A DNA stretch of 64,000 nt from Acidimicrobiia bacterium (GCA_030431785.1 JAUIIM010000004.1:5415-69414), one strand, 5' to 3'; positions 23,883 through 42,784 are shown, counted from the stretch's first letter. Numbers and translations are program-made. Notes: generated by a model not told the origin, from the sequence alone.

Positions 23883-25015
23883 TGGCAACCGAATTCCACT
23901 TGCCTGACATCGGGGAAGGCCTCGCCGAAGCGACGATCGTCCACTGGTATGTCGAAGTCGGTGAACGCGTCGAAACCGATGCGCCCCTCGTCGAGATCGA
24001 GACGGACAAGGCCGTCGTCGAAGTGCCGGCCCCGGTGGCCGGCGTCGTGTTGCATCACGGTGCCGCAGTGGACGAGGTCCTCGAGGTGGAGGCGCTTCTC
24101 GCAGTGATCGGCGACGAGGGAGAGTCATGGGCGCCGTCGAGTTCTCCGGAACCGGCGGCAACAGCGACGACCTCGGACGAAGCCGCACCGATCGTCGGCA
24201 CCCTGGATTCGAGCGATGCACCCACGGTTGCGAGCGGTGTCCAAGCCCTGCCCATGGTGCGGAAGCTCGCCGCCGAACTCGGTGTCGATCTGACTTCAGT
24301 CGCCGGCTCGGGACCGGGTGGCCGTGTCACCGAAGCCGACGTACGGTCGGCTGCCGAAGCGACCACGGGACCGCATACCCGGGTGCCACTGTCAGCGACA
24401 CGGAAGGCGATCGTCGCCAACCTGTCGAGGTCGTGGACCGAGATCCCACACGTGACGACGTACAGCGAAGTGGACGCATCCGCACTGCTCGCTGCTCGTG
24501 CCGACGCCGGAAAGCCCCCGCTCGAGGCGATTCTGATGCACCGGCTTGTTCCCGTCCTCAAGGAGTTCCCCGGCTTCAACGCATCGTTCGCCGGTGACGC
24601 CGTCCTCCAGCACGAACGATGGGACCTCGGGTTCGCCGTGGACACGCCGGATGGACTGATGGTCGCTGTGGTCCGTGATGTCGATCAGAAGTCGGTCGCT
24701 CAGCTCGGCGACGAGATACGTGAACTCGCCGATGGCGCAAAGTCGCGCTCGTTGACGCGAGCCGAACTCACGGGCCAGACGTTCACCATCTCCAACATCG
24801 GTGCCGTCGGCGGCCGGTATGGCACGCCCATCATCCCGTACGGCACGTCCGCCATCCTTTCGGTCGGGCGCGCCGAACCGCAAGCGGTCGTGCGCGATGG
24901 CGAGATCACCATCGCTACCGAATTCCCTCTGTCGCTGTCCTACGACCACCGCATCATCGACGGCGGTACTGGTCGAGCATTCATGGCCGCGGTGGTCGCA
25001 GCCTTTAGTTCCTAA
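23882..25015 (+). CDS. dihydrolipoamide acyltransferase E2
   Basis: Lipoyl motif EIETDKAVVEV, a PSBD (MVRKLAAELGVDL) and the catalytic DHRIIDG. Confidence 0.9.
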   Translation: MATEFHLPDIGEGLAEATIVHWYVEVGERVETDAPLVEIETDKAVVEVPAPVAGVVLHHGAAVDEVLEVEALLAVIGDEGESWAPSSSPEPAATATTSDEAAPIVGTLDSSDAPTVASGVQALPMVRKLAAELGVDLTSVAGSGPGGRVTEADVRSAAEATTGPHTRVPLSATRKAIVANLSRSWTEIPHVTTYSEVDASALLAARADAGKPPLEAILMHRLVPVLKEFPGFNASFAGDAVLQHERWDLGFAVDTPDGLMVAVVRDVDQKSVAQLGDEIRELADGAKSRSLTRAELTGQTFTISNIGAVGGRYGTPIIPYGTSAILSVGRAEPQAVVRDGEITIATEFPLSLSYDHRIIDGGTGRAFMAAVVAAFSS

Positions 25016-26325
25016 GGCGGGGATCGGTCGGACGCCGCGACTGCGGTGGTCGCCCCCGTTGTGCGGTTCACGATGTATCGGCGCCCGATGGGGGAGCGCC
25101 AGAGGTAGTCGCCCGACTCGGTGATCGAATGCTCCCATCCTGCCTCGTGGCGAATGCGGTGGTCGTGCCGACACAGCGGGAGGAGGTTGGCGATGGCGGT
25201 CGGGCCGCCGGCCGAGTACTCGTCTCGGTGGTCGATGTCCGATTCGATGGCCGGCATCCGGCAACCGGGGAATGCACACGTCGGGTGATACATCTCGATG
25301 AACCGTCGCTGGTCCGCGGATGGGCGGCGACGGGTCGTGTCGACGGCGACGGGAGCTCCGGTTTCGGGATCCGTCACCATGAATCGCCACTCGGCGTCAG
25401 GGTTTTGTTCGACGGTCTTGCGGGCGATGTCGGCGATGACCGGTCCATAGCCGTGCAACTCGCCGCCTGATTCGTTGAGTTCGACGAGCGTGTCGAGATC
25501 CACACGAATGTCGACGACACCGCGGCCGAGGCGGTCTTCGGAGGTGCCGGCGAGGAGGTCGAGGTAGATGTCGGCGCGCAGCTGGTCCATCGTGCGGGTT
25601 TCTCCATCACGACGCAGCGACTTTGCAATGTCGTTGATGCGACGCCGCACCTCGACCACCCGATCGGGTGGGAGGTTCGAGCCCTGGAGGTTCCCGGTTC
25701 CGTCCGGGTTGACCCACATCTCAACGCGTCGCTGCTCGACGGCCGCTTGATATCGGTGTGCGGCCGCTTCAGGTTCGACTTCAAGGGCGAGCTTTCGGAT
25801 CCGTGATCGGAGTTGGCCGGTCGTGAGGTGGGGTGCGTCGTCGACGATCGCATCGGCAACCCGTGTCTTCACGTCACGCGAGAGTCCGTAGAGAGAGTTG
25901 TGGATGGCGCGCAGTCGCCGGACGTCGATGTCCCCGGACTCGAGCAGCGCGGTGATCTGTGGCAACTCGTCCCGCATCTGGAGAGCTCGAGCCAACTCCG
26001 TGTCTGCGGCGGCTCTGGTCATGTGCAATGCGGCCCGGATCTCGCTTGCGACGTATTCCGGGGTGTGCGGATCGTCGGGATCAGCCCCGGTCTCCTCTAC
26101 GTAGCCATCCACCAGGGCAGCCATCTCCGACATCAGGCGGGCGGAGTGGTGCGAGACCATCCGTTGACGGGCTCGGAGCACCTTCATACGGTCGTCGGGA
26201 GACAGTCGGTCCATCTCGACGGCGCTCAGATAGGCGTCGAGCACCGGCCCGGGAGCCATCTCGTCGAGACGTCCCGGAACCGACGCCGTGTGTTCAGTTG
26301 TCTGAGCAGTGTCGAGGTCCAACAT
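25012..26325 (-). CDS. DUF222 / HNH endonuclease-domain protein (13E12-repeat-like family)
   Basis: C-terminal HNH region (CAFPGCRMPAIESDIDHRDEY...LLPLCRHDHRIRH) and an N-terminal DUF222-like helical region. Its 3' end overlaps the E2 stop codon by 4 nt (convergent genes). Confidence 0.8.
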   Translation of the reverse strand: MLDLDTAQTTEHTASVPGRLDEMAPGPVLDAYLSAVEMDRLSPDDRMKVLRARQRMVSHHSARLMSEMAALVDGYVEETGADPDDPHTPEYVASEIRAALHMTRAAADTELARALQMRDELPQITALLESGDIDVRRLRAIHNSLYGLSRDVKTRVADAIVDDAPHLTTGQLRSRIRKLALEVEPEAAAHRYQAAVEQRRVEMWVNPDGTGNLQGSNLPPDRVVEVRRRINDIAKSLRRDGETRTMDQLRADIYLDLLAGTSEDRLGRGVVDIRVDLDTLVELNESGGELHGYGPVIADIARKTVEQNPDAEWRFMVTDPETGAPVAVDTTRRRPSADQRRFIEMYHPTCAFPGCRMPAIESDIDHRDEYSAGGPTAIANLLPLCRHDHRIRHEAGWEHSITESGDYLWRSPIGRRYIVNRTTGATTAVAASDRSPP

Positions 26326-26331
26326 GGATAC

Positions 26332-26354
26332 AACGTATCAACGGGGTGTGACAG
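26332..26354 (-). promoter_or_regulatory. CTGTCACAC-N8-TACGTT promoter-like motif, 6 nt upstream of the HNH gene ATG (leaderless geometry)
   Basis: The minus strand reads TTCTGTCACAC CCCGTTGA TACGTT GTATCC ATG. The 12-nt core is identical to the recA and LysM copies. Confidence 0.6.
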
Positions 26355-32374: not shown

Positions 32375-32383
32375 CCGAGATCC

Positions 32384-32411
32384 TTGAATCGAACAGGTGT
32401 TCGGTTACACT
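32384..32411 (+). promoter_or_regulatory. recA promoter candidate with embedded LexA (Cheo-type) box
   Basis: -35 TTGAAT (32384-89), -10 TACACT (32406-11), 16-nt spacer. The box TCGAACAGGTGTTCGG (32389-32404) occupies the spacer. Confidence 0.65.
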
Positions 32412-32432
32412 GACGGCGTTGCCGAACCGGAT

Positions 32433-32455
32433 CTGTCACACCCGCAGGGTACGTT
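32433..32455 (+). promoter_or_regulatory. second recA promoter candidate, CTGTCACAC-N8-TACGTT (RecA-NDp-like)
   Basis: ATCTGTCACAC CCGCAGGG TACGTT, 26 nt upstream of the recA ATG, with the GAAAGGA Shine-Dalgarno in between. Confidence 0.6.
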
Positions 32456-32481
32456 GACGGGACCATACGAAAGGAACCGAC

Positions 32482-38465: not shown

Positions 38466-39101
38466 TCAGTCGACGTGACGCAGCACAGCGACCACGACAC
38501 CGAGGATCTCGACGCCTTCCGAGAACACCATCGGCTCGTACGCCGAGTTCTCCGGATGCAGGATGACGCCGAGGTCGGTCTTCTCGAACCGCTTCACGGT
38601 CGCCTCTTCGCCTTCGACGAGAGCGGCCACGATCTGCCCGTTGCGGGCCGTGGACTGCTTCTGGACGACGACGTAGTCGCGATCGAGGATGCCGGCTTCG
38701 AGCATCGAATCGCCGCGGATACGCAGCATGAAGACCGGTTCCTGACCGACGAGCTCGGTCGGTAGTGGGTAGACCTCTTCGATGTCCTCGTCGGCGAGGA
38801 TCGGGGAACCGGCAGCGATGTGACCGACGAGCGGGACATCACGAACCGCAGCCCGCGAGATGTGGACGGCACCATTCGGTGGATCGATCACCTCGATCGC
38901 ACGGGGCTTGGATGGGTCCCTTCGGATGTAGCCGGCCTCGGCGAGGGACGAGAGGTGGGAGTGGACGGTGGACGGCGAACTCAATCCGACTTCGTCGCCG
39001 ATCTCACGGACCGACGGCGGATAGCCGCGCTCGGCCACCGTTGCGGTGATCAGGTCGAGGATCTGCTGCTGTCTGTTCGTGAGTTGTGTGCGTTCCGTCA
39101 C
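38466..39101 (-). CDS. lexA: LexA repressor
   Basis: Winged-helix N-terminus (REIGDEVGLSSPSTVHSHL), cleavage region and S24 peptidase (GDSM...VVVQKQ). GTG start with a GAGG Shine-Dalgarno. Confidence 0.92.
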   Translation of the reverse strand: MTERTQLTNRQQQILDLITATVAERGYPPSVREIGDEVGLSSPSTVHSHLSSLAEAGYIRRDPSKPRAIEVIDPPNGAVHISRAAVRDVPLVGHIAAGSPILADEDIEEVYPLPTELVGQEPVFMLRIRGDSMLEAGILDRDYVVVQKQSTARNGQIVAALVEGEEATVKRFEKTDLGVILHPENSAYEPMVFSEGVEILGVVVAVLRHVD

Positions 39102-39150
39102 ATGGACCTCGCTTTCTCAAAATGCAGGCTAGCGCAGATTCGCTCCCAGA

Positions 39151-39166
39151 CCAAACATATGTTCGA
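39151..39166. promoter_or_regulatory. LexA box (one half-site mismatch) in the lexA / unknown-gene divergent region
   Basis: CCAAACATATGTTCGA against the consensus TCGAAC-N4-GTTCGA. It is 50 nt from the lexA start and 53 nt from the divergent gene start. Confidence 0.6.
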
Positions 39167-39218
39167 TTGCTTGAGTTCAGTGTGTCGGCACTGCATAAGC
39201 TGCCAGCAGGAGGTCGTG

Positions 39219-39911
39219 GTGCGTAGGTTCTGGATGTTCGTCGGGGGAGCGATGGCGGTCGTCGCGATCGGTCTCATCGCGTATCTGCTCGTCCGTGACA
39301 CTGGGCCCGATCCGGGTCCCGTCGTGCAGTCGGGCGTGACTGCGCCGGGCGAGACGCTGGTCCGACTGGACACGTTGCAATGCCACCGCGAGATTCCCGG
39401 ATGGCGTGCGGCGGGGTCGTCGGACGACATCGCCGCCGTCCGAGCGTGGTACGCCGAGAACTTCGGTGCCCTGGTACAGCCCTGGACGGACCTCGCCAAT
39501 TCACGGGGTGCGATCGGTGAGATGGTCGTGTACGAGGACATCGCCGTCTGGTTCCGTGAAGAGGGGCGCTACACGGTCTCGACCTTCGAGAGTGCCGATC
39601 ACTCCTGTGTCCCGGACGGGGCCGAACTCTGGGACGGCCGACCGGTCACCGCATGGAGCGGGATCGGTGTCTGCGACGAACTCGATCTCGTCGGATTCGG
39701 GGGAGCGACCGGCATCTACGGCCCGAAGGAGGTCGCCCCCGGTGTCGTCACGCCGCCGCTCGATGCACCGCCACGCGGATGGGAAAGCGAGTCGTACGAC
39801 TCGGCAGCGACGATCTGGTACAACCAGCGCGATGCGTCCGAGATCGTGATCCGGTTCACCGCCGGTGCCGAGCTGTATCGCTACGCCATCGGCGGTTGTG
39901 CGGGGGAGTGA
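39219..39911 (+). CDS. hypothetical membrane-anchored protein with Cys-containing extracytoplasmic domain
   Basis: AGGAGG (39208-13) lies 5 nt before GTG 39219. There is an N-terminal transmembrane helix (FVGGAMAVVAIGLIAYLLV). I recognise no family. Confidence 0.55.
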   Translation: MRRFWMFVGGAMAVVAIGLIAYLLVRDTGPDPGPVVQSGVTAPGETLVRLDTLQCHREIPGWRAAGSSDDIAAVRAWYAENFGALVQPWTDLANSRGAIGEMVVYEDIAVWFREEGRYTVSTFESADHSCVPDGAELWDGRPVTAWSGIGVCDELDLVGFGGATGIYGPKEVAPGVVTPPLDAPPRGWESESYDSAATIWYNQRDASEIVIRFTAGAELYRYAIGGCAGE

Positions 39912-39914
39912 TCC

Positions 39915-40202
39915 TCAGCTGTTGGCTGCGGGGATCTCGATCAGCTGGCCCGGCTGGAGTGAGCCCGCATCGATGTCGTTGATCTGCTCGATGATCCGTA
40001 CGACCTCACGTCGGTCGATATGGGATGGACCATGGTCTGCGGCGATCTGCCAGAGCGTGTCGCCCCCACGGACCCGATACGGCTCGGTTGCCGTGACCTC
40101 TGGTGTTGCCTGGACAGCCGAGGCGAGGAGTATCAGGATGACGACGACCGTGATGGAGATGATGGAGAGCGCTCGGAGGCGAACGCTTGCGGCTGTGGTC
40201 AT
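39915..40202 (-). CDS. small membrane-anchored LysM-domain protein (ChiZ/DivS-position SOS gene candidate)
   Basis: 95 aa. Transmembrane helix followed by a LysM domain (YRVRGGDTLWQIAADHG...LQPGQLIEIP). GAGGAG Shine-Dalgarno 8 nt upstream of the ATG. Confidence 0.75.
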   Translation of the reverse strand: MTTAASVRLRALSIISITVVVILILLASAVQATPEVTATEPYRVRGGDTLWQIAADHGPSHIDRREVVRIIEQINDIDAGSLQPGQLIEIPAANS

Positions 40203-40259
40203 GATCTGTACTCCTCGTACCTCGTGCTACCCAGAAAGGAGCTGAGCTCCTCAACGATC

Positions 40260-40282
40260 AAGGTACGAATCGGGTGTGACAG
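40260..40282 (-). promoter_or_regulatory. CTGTCACAC-N8-TACCTT promoter-like motif proximal to the LysM gene
   Basis: The minus strand reads ATCTGTCACAC CCGATTCG TACCTT, 57 nt upstream of the LysM ATG. Confidence 0.6.
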
Positions 40283-40320
40283 ATTTTGACCGTTGCGGTC
40301 TGTCGCCTTCACACGCCGAA

Positions 40321-40336
40321 TCGAACACTTGTTCGA
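40321..40336. promoter_or_regulatory. perfect LexA box 1
   Basis: TCGAACACTTGTTCGA is a perfect palindrome. It lies just downstream of the predicted start site of the distal minus-strand promoter. Confidence 0.75.
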
Positions 40337-40346
40337 CAACACGCAC

Positions 40347-40375
40347 AAGGTATCGAACACCTGTTCGATTGTCAA
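40347..40375 (-). promoter_or_regulatory. distal LysM-gene promoter with LexA box 2 filling the spacer
   Basis: The minus strand reads TTGACA (40375-70), a 17-nt spacer ATCGAACAGGTGTTCGA containing the perfect box TCGAACACCTGTTCGA (40353-68), then TACCTT (40352-47). Confidence 0.7.
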
Positions 40376-40421
40376 GCACTTGTTTGGTCACGCCTTGTCG
40401 GAACGGGCTACTCTGCGCCGG

Positions 40422-40871
40422 ATGCGATGTCCGTTGTGCACCACCGATGACACCCGGGTCGTCGACAGTCGCTCCGCCGAGGACGGTCGCACGATCCGTC
40501 GTCGTCGTTCGTGTCCGAGTTGTGGGCATCGATTTACGACGTTCGAACGCCCGAGTGTCGTCATCGTGGTCAAGCGTGATGGTCGTCGTCAGCCGTTCGA
40601 TGCATCGAAGGTGCGGCTCGGCGTCGAAATCACCCTTGCGGACCGTCCGGTCCCATCGGATGCCGTCGACGATCTCGTGGCCACCGTCGAGCGTGCTGCG
40701 TACGGGTCGCAGGGCATCATCGATGCAGACGAGATCGGTCGGATCGTCCTCGAGGGTCTCCGTGATCTCGACGAGGTCGGCTACCTGCGTTTCGCCTCCG
40801 TCTACAAGGAGTTCCAGGACGCCGGTGATTTCGGACGTGAGGCGGCGCGCCTGGCGACCGAGGACGAGTAG
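40422..40871 (+). CDS. nrdR: transcriptional repressor NrdR
   Basis: Zn-ribbon MRCPLC...CPSCGHRFTTFE plus an ATP-cone. TACTCT sits 7 nt upstream of the ATG, so the transcript may be leaderless. Confidence 0.92.
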   Translation: MRCPLCTTDDTRVVDSRSAEDGRTIRRRRSCPSCGHRFTTFERPSVVIVVKRDGRRQPFDASKVRLGVEITLADRPVPSDAVDDLVATVERAAYGSQGIIDADEIGRIVLEGLRDLDEVGYLRFASVYKEFQDAGDFGREAARLATEDE

Positions 40872-40876
40872 CCGGT

Positions 40877-42094
40877 TCAGTCCGTGTCGGTGAGGTTCGC
40901 CATGTGCGTCTCGAGTGCTGACGCATAGGCGACGATCCGGATATCGGTGATCGACCGGAATTCGGCGAGTGCTTCGGAGTTCGCATCGTTGAGGTCACGC
41001 TTCATCACGTCGAGCTCGTCGAGCAGTGTCTGCGCCGTCTCGCTGTCCCCGCTGTTGAGCGCTGCGAGGTACTCGCCCTGCCACGCCTCGTAGCGGGCAT
41101 GGGTCGCAAGGGCTTCCGCCTGGACCGGAGCGAACGTTGGATCGTCCGGGAGTTCTTCGACGATGTCCGCGTCGTGGGCGAGGGATGCCGCCAGGGTCAC
41201 ACTGATCGTGTTGATCGTTGCCGTGTCCGCAGCGATCGGGAGATTCCCCGGATCGAGCAACGTCGGAATCGAGACTCGGTAGACGTAGCCGGCACCGAGC
41301 TGCTGTGCCAGGTCTGCGCCTTCCTCTGCCAACGTGCTCTGTTCCGCCTGGAGCGGGACGAGCGCATCGATGGCGTCGGACGGCACGAGCGGGAGCGTGG
41401 TCGGCAACGGTTCGTCCGCCGCTTCCTGCATCTCGAATGCGAGGGTGTTGAGTTGGGCGATCGTGGGGGTTGCCGCGGTCAGTTCGTCGGTGGTCGCTGC
41501 CGGGTTCGTGATCGCATCAAGCGATGTCTGTGCGTTCGGGAGCTGGTTGCGGACCGCAACGGACGTGTCGTAGTAGTCCTGTCGGACGGCGAGGGCGTCG
41601 GACTTGGCAGCCTGCGGGAGCCAGATGGCGGCGACGGCGATCGCAGCGACCACGAACAGGAGCGGGACGAGAACGGGCCACCAGCGTCGCTGCTTCTCCT
41701 TCACGGGGGCCGGTTCTTCGGCGACCGGTGTCGGCGGTGGTGCCTGCGGTGGCGGGGGCGCTGCAACCGGGAGTGGTGCCGTCGGGGGCGTCGGCGTCGG
41801 CGGCGGGGTGCCGGGGGTCGCAGGGCGCATCGAGCGGGCGTAGGTCAGGTTTGACGTCCCTGGGTTGCCGTCGAACGACGAGAACGTCACCTGGGTCGTG
41901 CGTACCGATGGTGCAGGTGGTGTCTCTTCGGCGGTCTCTTCGGGCTCGACGATCTCGTTCTCACGCGTGAGCTCCTCGAGCGCATCAGATCCGGTCGGAG
42001 CCTTCGGGACAGCGCCGACGGTCTCGAGAAACCAGGCACCGTCCGTGTCCGGGGACCTGCTGCCGGGTGGTGTATTCGGTGTGTCGTTCGCCAC
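40877..42094 (-). CDS. Pro/Ala-rich single-pass membrane protein, hypothetical
   Basis: Proline-rich N-terminus, a transmembrane helix (WWPVLVPLLFVVAAIAVAAIW) and a helical extracytoplasmic domain. I prefer GTG 42094 because ATG 42232 would overlap dut. Confidence 0.5.
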   Translation of the reverse strand: MANDTPNTPPGSRSPDTDGAWFLETVGAVPKAPTGSDALEELTRENEIVEPEETAEETPPAPSVRTTQVTFSSFDGNPGTSNLTYARSMRPATPGTPPPTPTPPTAPLPVAAPPPPQAPPPTPVAEEPAPVKEKQRRWWPVLVPLLFVVAAIAVAAIWLPQAAKSDALAVRQDYYDTSVAVRNQLPNAQTSLDAITNPAATTDELTAATPTIAQLNTLAFEMQEAADEPLPTTLPLVPSDAIDALVPLQAEQSTLAEEGADLAQQLGAGYVYRVSIPTLLDPGNLPIAADTATINTISVTLAASLAHDADIVEELPDDPTFAPVQAEALATHARYEAWQGEYLAALNSGDSETAQTLLDELDVMKRDLNDANSEALAEFRSITDIRIVAYASALETHMANLTDTD

Positions 42095-42123
42095 TGGTTC
42101 CTGCTTCGTGGGACAATCCGCCC

Positions 42124-42552
42124 ATGAAGATACCTGTGATCCACGAAGACTCCCGTATTCCGATCCCGACGATCGCTCATCCCGGGGACGCCGGCGCCGA
42201 TCTCGCCGCCGCCGAGGCGGTGACGATCCCATCGGGAGGCCGTGCTTTGATTGGTACCGGCCTGCGTGTCGCGATCCCTGACGGACACGCCGGTCTGGTG
42301 CTCCCGCGGTCCGGGTTGGCGACGCGGTTGGGGGTCACGGTGTCGAACGCTCCCGGTTTGATCGACGCCGGATACCGCGGTGAGTTGAAGGTTGGTCTGA
42401 CGAATCATGGGAGTGAACCGTTCTCGGTGGAGGTCGGTGACCGGATCGCCCAGCTGGTCATCATCGCCGTCGTCGAACCGGAGTTCGAGGTCGTCGACGT
42501 CCTGCCGGACTCGGATCGTGGTGCCGGAGGTTTCGGATCGACCGGGAAGTGA
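42124..42552 (+). CDS. dut: dUTP diphosphatase
   Basis: Motifs AGADL, PRSG, GLIDAGYRGE and a C-terminal RGAGGFGSTG. Confidence 0.92.
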   Translation: MKIPVIHEDSRIPIPTIAHPGDAGADLAAAEAVTIPSGGRALIGTGLRVAIPDGHAGLVLPRSGLATRLGVTVSNAPGLIDAGYRGELKVGLTNHGSEPFSVEVGDRIAQLVIIAVVEPEFEVVDVLPDSDRGAGGFGSTGK

Positions 42553-42598: not shown

Positions 42599-42671
42599 GC
42601 GGACGTAGCTCAGCTGGTAGAGCGCAACCTTGCCAAGGTTGAGGTCGCCGGTTCGAACCCGGTCGTCCGCT
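42599..42671 (+). tRNA. tRNA-Gly (GCC)
   Basis: Hand-folded cloverleaf. Acceptor GCGGACG/CGTCCGC, anticodon arm CAACC-TTGCCAA-GGTTG, T-loop TTCGAAC. Confidence 0.9.
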
Positions 42672-42710: not shown

Positions 42711-42784
42711 GGCGACGTGGCCGAGCGGCTAGGCAGGGGACTGCAAATCCCCGTACTCGGGTTCGAATCCCGACGTCGCCTCCA
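42711..42784 (+). tRNA. tRNA-Cys (GCA), CCA encoded
   Basis: Acceptor GGCGACG/CGTCGCC, anticodon arm GGGGA-CTGCAAA-TCCCC, T-loop TTCGAAT. Confidence 0.9.

Follow-up and report, generated by a model that had tools for sequence, protein, structure and literature searches.

Is the interval between lexA and nrdR in a 64,000-nt stretch of DNA from an Acidimicrobiia bacterium (GCA_030431785.1, JAUIIM010000004.1:5415–69414; hereafter "the window") a known kind of DNA damage locus, and, if so, what is a gene of no recognisable family doing beside the LysM gene within it? An initial annotation of this stretch had read the gene order as lexA (minus strand), a gene for a 230-aa membrane-anchored protein (plus), a gene for a LysM protein (minus) and nrdR (plus). 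The list of open reading frames (ORFs) and searches of Pfam and NCBIfam bear out this order. The lexA gene encodes 211 aa (38466–39101, minus strand; Pfam Peptidase_S24, E = 9e-33; LexA_DNA_bind, E = 3.7e-26); the 230-aa gene, here called unk230, has a GTG start and an AGGAGG ribosome-binding site and encodes an N-terminal transmembrane helix (39219–39911, plus strand); lysM encodes a 95-aa protein with a transmembrane segment and a LysM domain (39915–40202, minus strand; Pfam LysM, E = 6e-7); and nrdR encodes 149 aa (40422–40871, plus strand; NCBIfam TIGR00244, 146.5 bits against a cut-off of 124.65 bits). A start of nrdR at 40293, as the long ORF would have it, was rejected; the true ATG is at 40422. 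The sequence features that the initial annotation had described are all present where it had placed them, and far beyond chance. We consider it likely that the region is the Acidimicrobiia form of the lexA/LysM division-inhibitor/nrdR damage locus, with an accessory inserted gene and an inverted lysM cassette. The core of the locus is a known system; its unusual parts are the rare inserted gene and the inversion.

The comparison on which this reading is built uses a locus set obtained by a LexA-based scan with one genome per species, which yielded ~35 Acidimicrobiia loci from metagenome-assembled genomes (MAGs); all of the comparative sequences are MAG or metagenome contigs. LexA of the window is 76–86% identical to the LexA proteins of these MAGs. 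In 35/35 loci of the genome collection with both genes, lysM points away from lexA and in the same direction as nrdR, and the flanking order miaA-dapF-lexA | lysM-nrdR-(451-aa gene)-dut is conserved among them. The lexA-chiZ-nrdR order of Mycobacterium tuberculosis is the same arrangement (PMC3989709). The window keeps the linkage of lysM to lexA but not the orientation, and unk230 intervenes.

The LysM protein has the small bitopic architecture expected of a division inhibitor of this kind, with a hydrophobic helix at about residues 10–30 and a C-terminal, predicted extracytoplasmic LysM domain at residues 42–91; LysM domains in the PDB also match it by sequence. The NCBIfam model for YneA (NF010723) aligns with it over model positions 5–86 of 87, with a score of 51 bits (E = 1e-13) against a cut-off of 60, so the protein is YneA-like and not a YneA equivalog. 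Across 37 distinct orthologues its transmembrane helix, RALSIISITVVV.LLLLASA, shows strong conservation and is nearly invariant at many positions, which fits the mechanism of YneA, in which the helix docks on FtsW (PMC13396833). We infer that the 95-aa protein is a damage-induced division inhibitor of the YneA/ChiZ type, that is, of a known kind. The proposal of the initial annotation that it is the SOS-inducible division inhibitor of this lineage is thus supported, at the level of sequence, by the YneA-like architecture, by the position in 35/35 loci and by a conserved promoter in which a LexA operator is embedded. By analogy with YneA and ChiZ, the protein would dock on the septal peptidoglycan synthase through its conserved transmembrane helix, and its LysM domain would block septal wall synthesis.

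Two perfect LexA boxes had been placed in the spacer of a lysM promoter and just downstream of its predicted start, and both lie exactly there. The predicted LexA-controlled (SOS) promoter of lysM (40347–40375, minus strand) consists of TTGACA (40375–40370), a spacer of 17 nt made up of one base and the perfect box 1, TCGAACACCTGTTCGA (40353–40368), and TACCTT (40352–40347). Box 2, TCGAACACTTGTTCGA (40321–40336), is likewise perfect and would occupy about +4 to +20 of this promoter, so that the pair appears placed to repress it. Palindromes perfect at all 12 specified bases are found three times in the window, against ~0.004 expected per 64 kb, and two of the three are these boxes, 32 nt apart. 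Boxes with up to two mismatches number 20, against 6.8 expected, a count that 0/100 shuffles reached. The description of this promoter as a consensus promoter holds for the −35, which is perfect, but not for the −10: TACCTT matches E. coli at 3/6 positions and fits the actinobacterial TAnnnT, and a strict promoter scan did not list it. The layout of TTGACA, one base, box and TAnnnT is kept in the related loci, and in most relatives the equivalent of box 2 is CCGAAC-N4-GTTCGG.

The third perfect LexA-type palindrome in the window, TCGAACCGGAGTTCGA (42473–42488), lies within the coding region of dut, where it encodes EPEF, and may be a chance occurrence or an internal operator.

Upstream of lexA, the autoregulatory operator CCAAACATATGTTCGA (39151–39166) has two mismatches to TCGAAC-N4-GTTCGA and overlaps the putative −35 of lexA (TTTGGT, 18 nt, TAGCCT, minus strand). 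The identical 16-mer stands upstream of lexA in at least 12 lineages (L005, L013, L014, L018, L020, L021, L027, L037, L036, L088, L089 and L091). The typical order before lysM in the relatives is CCAAACATATGTTCGA, one base, TTGACA, one base, LexA box, TAnnnT and second box, and then TGTCACAC(CC)-N8-TAnnnT, an AGGAGC...GCTCCT hairpin and the ribosome-binding site.

A further promoter-like element nearer to lysM had been noted in the initial annotation. It is present, and can be given a more precise identity: CTGTCACAC (40274–40282, minus strand) is part of TGTCACAC-N8-TACCTT (40260–40281, minus strand), a predicted promoter of the PafBC/RecA-NDp type, with a TGTC-containing element, 8 nt, a TAnnnT −10 and no −35. 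The exact pattern TGTCACAC-N8-TAnnnT has three copies in the window, against 0.39 expected, and all of them are 5′ of genes: recA, a gene with DUF222 and HNH domains, and lysM. Among the relatives the TGTCACAC element precedes lysM in 34/35 loci. The consensus of mycobacterial RecA-independent promoters is tTGTCRgtg-8nt-TAnnnT (PMC5656591), PafBC reads the GTC triplet of the −26 element at promoters that lack a −35 (PMC8635444), and genes with both LexA and PafBC motifs are known, recA among them (PMC8223512, PMC8682763). The lysM element shares with the mycobacterial "sigma adaptation" promoters, such as recA P1, the absence of a −35 and the TGTC element 8 nt 5′ of TAnnnT; the window shares with them also the occurrence of the element at recA, beside a LexA-controlled promoter, and at a DUF222/HNH (13E12-like) gene (PMC5656591, PMC8635444, PMC8223512). 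The difference lies in the element itself, TGTCACAC(CC) here against TGTCRGTG, and the assignment is one by motif alone. We conclude that the third lysM promoter element appears to match PafBC/RecA-NDp promoters in both geometry and gene set. Given this geometry, control of lysM would appear to be dual, like that reported in mycobacteria for recA and other genes with the two motifs. If so, TGTCACAC would be a lineage-specific variant of the −26 element, usable to predict the damage regulon in Acidimicrobiia genomes.

The two other copies in the window merit description. The recA region (32380–32481) has what appears to be the classic two-promoter layout: a LexA box with one mismatch, TCGAACAGGTGTTCGG, lies within a TTGAAT...TACACT promoter ~45 nt 5′ of the TGTCACAC element, and TGTCACAC-N8-TACGTT stands ~27 nt before the recA ATG. 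The gene for a 437-aa protein with DUF222 and an HNH endonuclease domain (25012–26353, minus strand) has TGTCACAC-N8-TACGTT 6 nt before its ATG. In M. tuberculosis, genes of the DUF222/13E12 family are damage-induced independently of RecA.

Taken together, these elements suggest that lysM is transcribed from two stacked promoters. The upstream one would be of the sigma-A type, with a LexA operator as its spacer and another past the start, giving tight repression until LexA is cleaved; ~70 nt nearer to the gene, the second would be an activator-dependent, −35-less promoter in which TGTCACAC lies 8 nt 5′ of the TAnnnT −10. Downstream of the PafBC-type −10, the 5′ untranslated region (UTR) is predicted to fold into a stem-loop, GAGGAGC-UCA-GCUCCUU (40241–40255, minus strand). 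A hairpin of the form AGGAGC-loop-GCUCCU has the same position in most loci (L003–L037), and in L018, L020 and L027 its stems are altered yet still paired.

Among the closest known systems are damage-induced inhibitors of division. ChiZ (Rv2719c) of M. tuberculosis resembles the LysM protein of the window in its small size, its membrane location and its extracellular LysM domain at the C terminus; it is damage-induced and acts late in division (PMC3989709, PMC13396833). LexA-type and RecA-independent (PafBC-type) elements lie upstream in both cases, and the ancestral Acidimicrobiia arrangement is alike, with the gene divergent from lexA and followed by nrdR. ChiZ is a protein of 165 aa with a long, disordered cytoplasmic N-terminal region, which is absent from the 95-aa protein, and further differences in the window are the inversion of lysM, which makes it divergent to nrdR, and the extra gene that stands between it and lexA. 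Brooks, in 2006, is said to have found RecA-independent induction of Rv2719c.

YneA of Bacillus subtilis shares with the LysM protein a length of ~100 aa, the combination of an N-terminal transmembrane helix and a LysM domain, over which its model aligns nearly full length, LexA control (predicted here) and linkage to lexA (adjacency in the related loci, with unk230 in between in the window). According to the model for YneA, its helix docks on FtsW while its LysM domain prevents the use of glycan strands (PMC13396833). The differences are that B. subtilis belongs to another phylum, that the protein of the window scores below the equivalog cut-off and has an extra activator-type promoter, and that neither yneB nor ynzC is found downstream of lysM. 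In Corynebacterium glutamicum, divS is also followed by nrdR. DivS is an SOS-induced division suppressor encoded close to lexA and has no significant homology to YneA (PMC3989709), whereas the protein here clearly has a LysM domain. To judge from sequence, the module of lexA, LysM inhibitor and nrdR, with dual control of the LexA and PafBC type, now extends to the Acidimicrobiia, a deep and largely uncultured class of actinobacteria.

The orientation of lysM is opposite to that of the window in all 35 loci of the genome collection and also in three further loci, L088, L089 and L091. When positions 39900–40430 of the window are aligned with the L089 stretch between the unk230 stop and nrdR, taken as its reverse complement, the two are colinear from the lysM stop to ~20 nt past the −35. 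This colinearity indicates that the arrangement of the window derives from an L089-like order, with lexA followed by divergent unk230, by the lysM promoter region and lysM and by nrdR, through inversion of a cassette of ~480 bp (39912–40395) that holds lysM and its complete control region. The right junction is marked by a degenerate operator-like remnant, GACCAAACAAGTGCTTGA (40372–40389, minus strand), which overlaps the −35, matches the lexA operator region at 14/18 positions and, as GACCAAACA...TTGA, corresponds to the short stretch that follows the unk230 stop in L089. An assembly artefact was rejected, since the same arrangement is found in L001 and L002 and hence in three independent assemblies. 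We conclude that insertion of unk230, at the point between the lexA operator and the lysM −35, came first and inversion of the lysM cassette second; among the loci compared, only this lineage has it inverted. The "rearranged" locus of the initial annotation is thereby borne out and, from the alignment to L089, made precise as an insertion followed by an inversion.

At the left junction, the stop codons of unk230 (39909–39911) and lysM (39915–39917) converge with 3 nt between them. That this gap leaves no room for terminators had been pointed out before and is confirmed: there is neither a terminator nor a bidirectional hairpin at the junction, where the fold z-scores are +0.44 and −1.74. After the inversion, lysM faces the inserted gene and points away from nrdR, which would have a leaderless promoter of its own. 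The inversion would abolish read-through from the inserted gene into lysM, and a damage-induced lysM transcript would run antisense through unk230 and then in the sense direction into lexA. The spacer between lysM and nrdR is 100% identical between the window and L001. Within it, only 6 nt separate the nrdR −10 (TACTCT, 40410–40415, plus strand) from the ATG, so that the nrdR mRNA would be leaderless or nearly so, and independent of lysM; TACGMT stands 6 nt before the nrdR ATG in most of 19 related loci, and a few differ in hexamer or spacing.

What, then, is the inserted gene? That unk230 is not a gene can be rejected: between the window and L001 its dN/dS is 0.17, with 125 substitutions and no indels, the family has conserved Cys, His and Trp residues, and the predicted structure has a pLDDT of 89. 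The doubt raised in the initial annotation, that the ORF might lack conservation at the protein level, is answered by this dN/dS and these residues, although the gene is absent from the nearest relatives. The family is very rare. Two matches were found among 5.8 billion clustered proteins and 17, one of them spurious, among 1.84 billion representative proteins; metagenomes were scanned with an alignment of six members. Conserved residues are C55, W77, H128, C130, W138, C152, W188 and C227, with four cysteines and an HxC motif among them, and the family shares a predicted membrane anchor at the N terminus. In the 230-aa protein an alpha/beta domain of ~200 aa would follow on the extracytoplasmic side. 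The AlphaFold model of the window protein is a confident alpha/beta structure (pLDDT 88.9, pTM 0.77). The conserved residues together with the anchor suggest a disulfide-bonded, extracytoplasmic domain, and the protein is probably of the type-II membrane-anchored kind.

The statement that the 230-aa protein belongs to no recognisable family stands. Pfam has no match for it or for the 17 family members; NCBIfam gives one sub-threshold match (16 bits against a cut-off of 100) that lies over the transmembrane helix; PADLOC and a sequence-profile search of the PDB give none for the 230-aa protein; and Foldseek with the model yields best E-values of 0.13 (PDB) and 0.25 (BFVD), with top-ranked TM-scores of ~0.14, none of them significant. 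The family is confidently folded, very rare and has no annotated relative, and the close placement of unk230 beside a putative division inhibitor makes it a concrete candidate for a checkpoint modulator.

The inserted gene is also more divergent than its surroundings. It is only 82% identical in DNA to that of L001/L002, while the other genes are 95–99% identical. Compared with L001, the divergent tract covers ~1.1 kb (38800–39911) from the 5′ half of lexA through the operator to the stop of unk230, at 74–89% identity except for one bin (39000–39099) at 98%; its flanks are 95–100% identical except for single 100-nt bins at 92% and 87%. The changes in lexA within the tract are synonymous. Import of an allele through homologous recombination is the best reading of the tract and suggests that diverged lineages exchange the cassette.

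The distribution of the family bears on its role. Its members fall into two clades. Clade A (33–81% identical) comprises seven lineages: the window, L001/L002, L036, L087/L088 (P0004), L089 (P0003), L090 (P0005) and L091 (P0006, GCA_041393965.1). All clade-A members sit between the lexA operator and the lysM promoter. The gene is missing from ~30 relatives that carry lysM, including those nearest by LexA and DapF (L003 and L007). Comparison of the interval across the Acidimicrobiia, as the initial annotation had proposed, thus gives a divided answer: the 230-aa gene adjoins lysM in seven lineages and is absent beside lysM in ~30 relatives. In a neighbour-joining tree of LexA plus DapF, the clade-A lineages fall within one subclade together with L003, L004, L007, L008, L017 and L033, all of which lack the gene, a pattern consistent with one gain followed by patchy loss. 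A 247-aa protein inserted in L003 was considered as a diverged homologue and rejected (hhalign probability 1.3%). In L036, L088 and L090 a divergent gene for a membrane-anchored, Cys-containing protein of ~180 aa lies between lexA and the family member, and L006 has the ~180-aa gene alone. Other lineages have unrelated genes at or beside the same site, encoding GNAT acetyltransferases and lipoprotein-like proteins of no family.

Clade B, the distant members, is not near lexA or lysM. Its members P0008, P0010 and P0021 are each convergently paired with a conserved ~90-aa protein of three transmembrane helices (3-TM) that carries the motif VWLIGYQDHPWR, the two genes being 3 nt apart or overlapping by 4 nt; the 3-TM partners are 37–51% identical to one another. 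The clade-B pairs lie at L092 1862–2814, L093 1772–2701, L085 8001–9043 and L086 1526–2454, and look like a two-gene module. Outside the clade-B loci, neither the window nor any retrieved locus was found to encode a homologue of the 3-TM partner. L085 also holds another DUF222 gene, with a near-perfect LexA-type box, near its clade-B family member.

Most likely, the 230-aa protein is an accessory envelope protein encoded at a permissive site and vertically inherited, and not an obligate part of the checkpoint. The gene would have been inserted in one subclade, optionally accompanied by the divergent ~180-aa gene, and appears to have a TAnnnT promoter of its own without a conserved LexA or PafBC element. 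We rate such a passenger likelier than a partner of the inhibitor because most relatives manage without the gene, because the neighbourhood is syntenic and because the gene itself lacks a damage-responsive element. The presence of lysM in ~30 relatives without unk230 indicates that the inhibitor does not need the 230-aa protein, and, since the whole neighbourhood from miaB to dut is syntenic, conserved adjacency is the null expectation.

Several observations weigh against the view that this is an established damage locus with an accessory gene. The LysM protein does not reach the YneA equivalog cut-off (51 against 60 bits); the −26 element reads TGTCACAC and not the mycobacterial TGTCRGTG, the last four bases being different; and no pafBC candidate was found within the 64-kb window. 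The history of gain and loss rests on a two-protein neighbour-joining tree of MAG fragments and is weak. All seven clade-A lineages keep unk230 next to the lysM promoter or gene, even after the inversion, and in L089, L090 and L091 the family member stops only 16–31 nt short of the lysM −35, too little for a terminator to fit. Finally, the clade-B members are each paired with the conserved 3-TM protein of ~90 aa in three unrelated neighbourhoods, and the other neighbours of these pairs are unrelated across loci.

The observations on adjacency and pairing favour a functional link, and the strongest alternative is that the 230-aa protein is an envelope partner or antagonist of the LysM inhibitor, made from its own promoter in undamaged cells, where it would buffer or remove inhibitor that leaks through; in the window lineage, convergent SOS-induced transcription of lysM would then shut unk230 off by interference or antisense RNA, giving reciprocal expression. 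No terminator fits between unk230 and lysM in any lineage. From the pairing in clade B, a small membrane protein would seem to be the working partner of the family, and the 230-aa and LysM proteins are both predicted to be N-in, C-out, so that their domains would share a compartment. YneA is known to have dedicated antagonists (PMC13396833): DdcA, DdcP and CtpA are envelope-associated factors that counteract it in checkpoint recovery of B. subtilis. The parallel with these is conceptual only, in role and not in sequence, and they are not encoded next to yneA, unlike unk230 beside lysM. However, the ~30 lysM-bearing relatives without the gene include the closest by LexA and DapF, synteny extends over the whole miaB-to-dut neighbourhood, unrelated genes hold the same site in other lineages, unk230 itself lacks a conserved LexA or PafBC element, and the clade-B partner is not a LysM protein and has no homologue in the window or in the fetched loci outside clade B. 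We regard a partner or antagonist as possible but doubtful. The SOS-linked envelope partner or antagonist that the initial annotation had envisaged is therefore not established; what stands is a real, conserved gene whose position is kept in seven lineages, and what speaks against such a role is the number of relatives that lack the gene, the want of a LexA or PafBC element of its own and the location of clade B elsewhere.

A bolder form of the same idea is that the proteins constitute a new extracytoplasmic family, with a fold unseen in the PDB, that acts on small membrane proteins encoded 3′; the lexA-linked clade would be a modulator of the SOS LysM inhibitor, as a buffer or recovery factor, and the inversion would have created a switch of mutually exclusive convergent transcription. 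We think this unlikely.

Sharing of the lexA operator by unk230 is a further alternative, under which the two genes would form a divergent, LexA-repressed pair. The initial annotation had noted that the 230-aa gene shares the lexA box region, and the box (two mismatches) is indeed there and directly adjacent to unk230, in the window as in L001, L089 and L091. It ends 29 nt 5′ of the best TAnnnT (TAAGCT, ~39196–39201) and 52 nt 5′ of the start codon. This spacing would put the operator at about −57 to −42, still upstream of the −35 region, where a classic repressor site would not be expected. Nor is the spacing kept among lineages: the −10 follows the operator by ~30 nt in the window and L001, by ~52 nt in L091 and by >60 nt in L089. 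The ~180-aa gene intervenes in L036, L088 and L090, and the promoter region of the family member there has no box at up to two mismatches. The candidate −10 elements of the 230-aa gene are TAAGCT in the window, TATGCT in L001, TAGTCT in L036, L090 and L091, TAGTGT in L088 and TAATGT in L089. As judged from these promoter regions, unk230 is probably not under SOS control by design, and we hold it quite improbable that it is a LexA-repressed SOS gene.

That the inverted cassette is a programmed, invertible (phase-variable) switch and not a fixed rearrangement is hardly credible. In favour of a switch, promoter and gene form a compact inverted unit whose ends are precise, and positions 39149–39166 and 40372–40389 make up an imperfect 18-nt inverted repeat (78% complementary). 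However, this repeat flanks unk230 plus lysM and not the cassette actually inverted, and recombination across it would cost lexA its operator. The orientation is the same in three independent assemblies, and neither suitable inverted repeats nor an adjacent recombinase gene were found, which together argue against a programmed switch.

The interval between lexA, lysM and nrdR is a variable site beyond clade A, as seen in L003 (4248–5409), L005 (4401–6476), L006 (6124–6994), L016 (3158–4103) and L024 (2824–6130). Its cargo elsewhere includes GNAT acetyltransferases, lipoprotein-like or secreted proteins of no family and the membrane-anchored, Cys-containing protein of ~180 aa.

On the far side of nrdR, between it and dut, lies a gene for a 451-aa proline-rich protein with a central transmembrane helix (40877–42232, minus strand). 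Its position is kept in most relatives with enough flanking sequence, at 27–50% identity, and it has no match in Pfam, NCBIfam or PADLOC. The hairpin in the lysM 5′ UTR matches no Rfam family, and an Rfam scan of the spacers gave only the two tRNA genes downstream of dut, which directly follow it at 42599–42671 and 42711–42781 on the plus strand.

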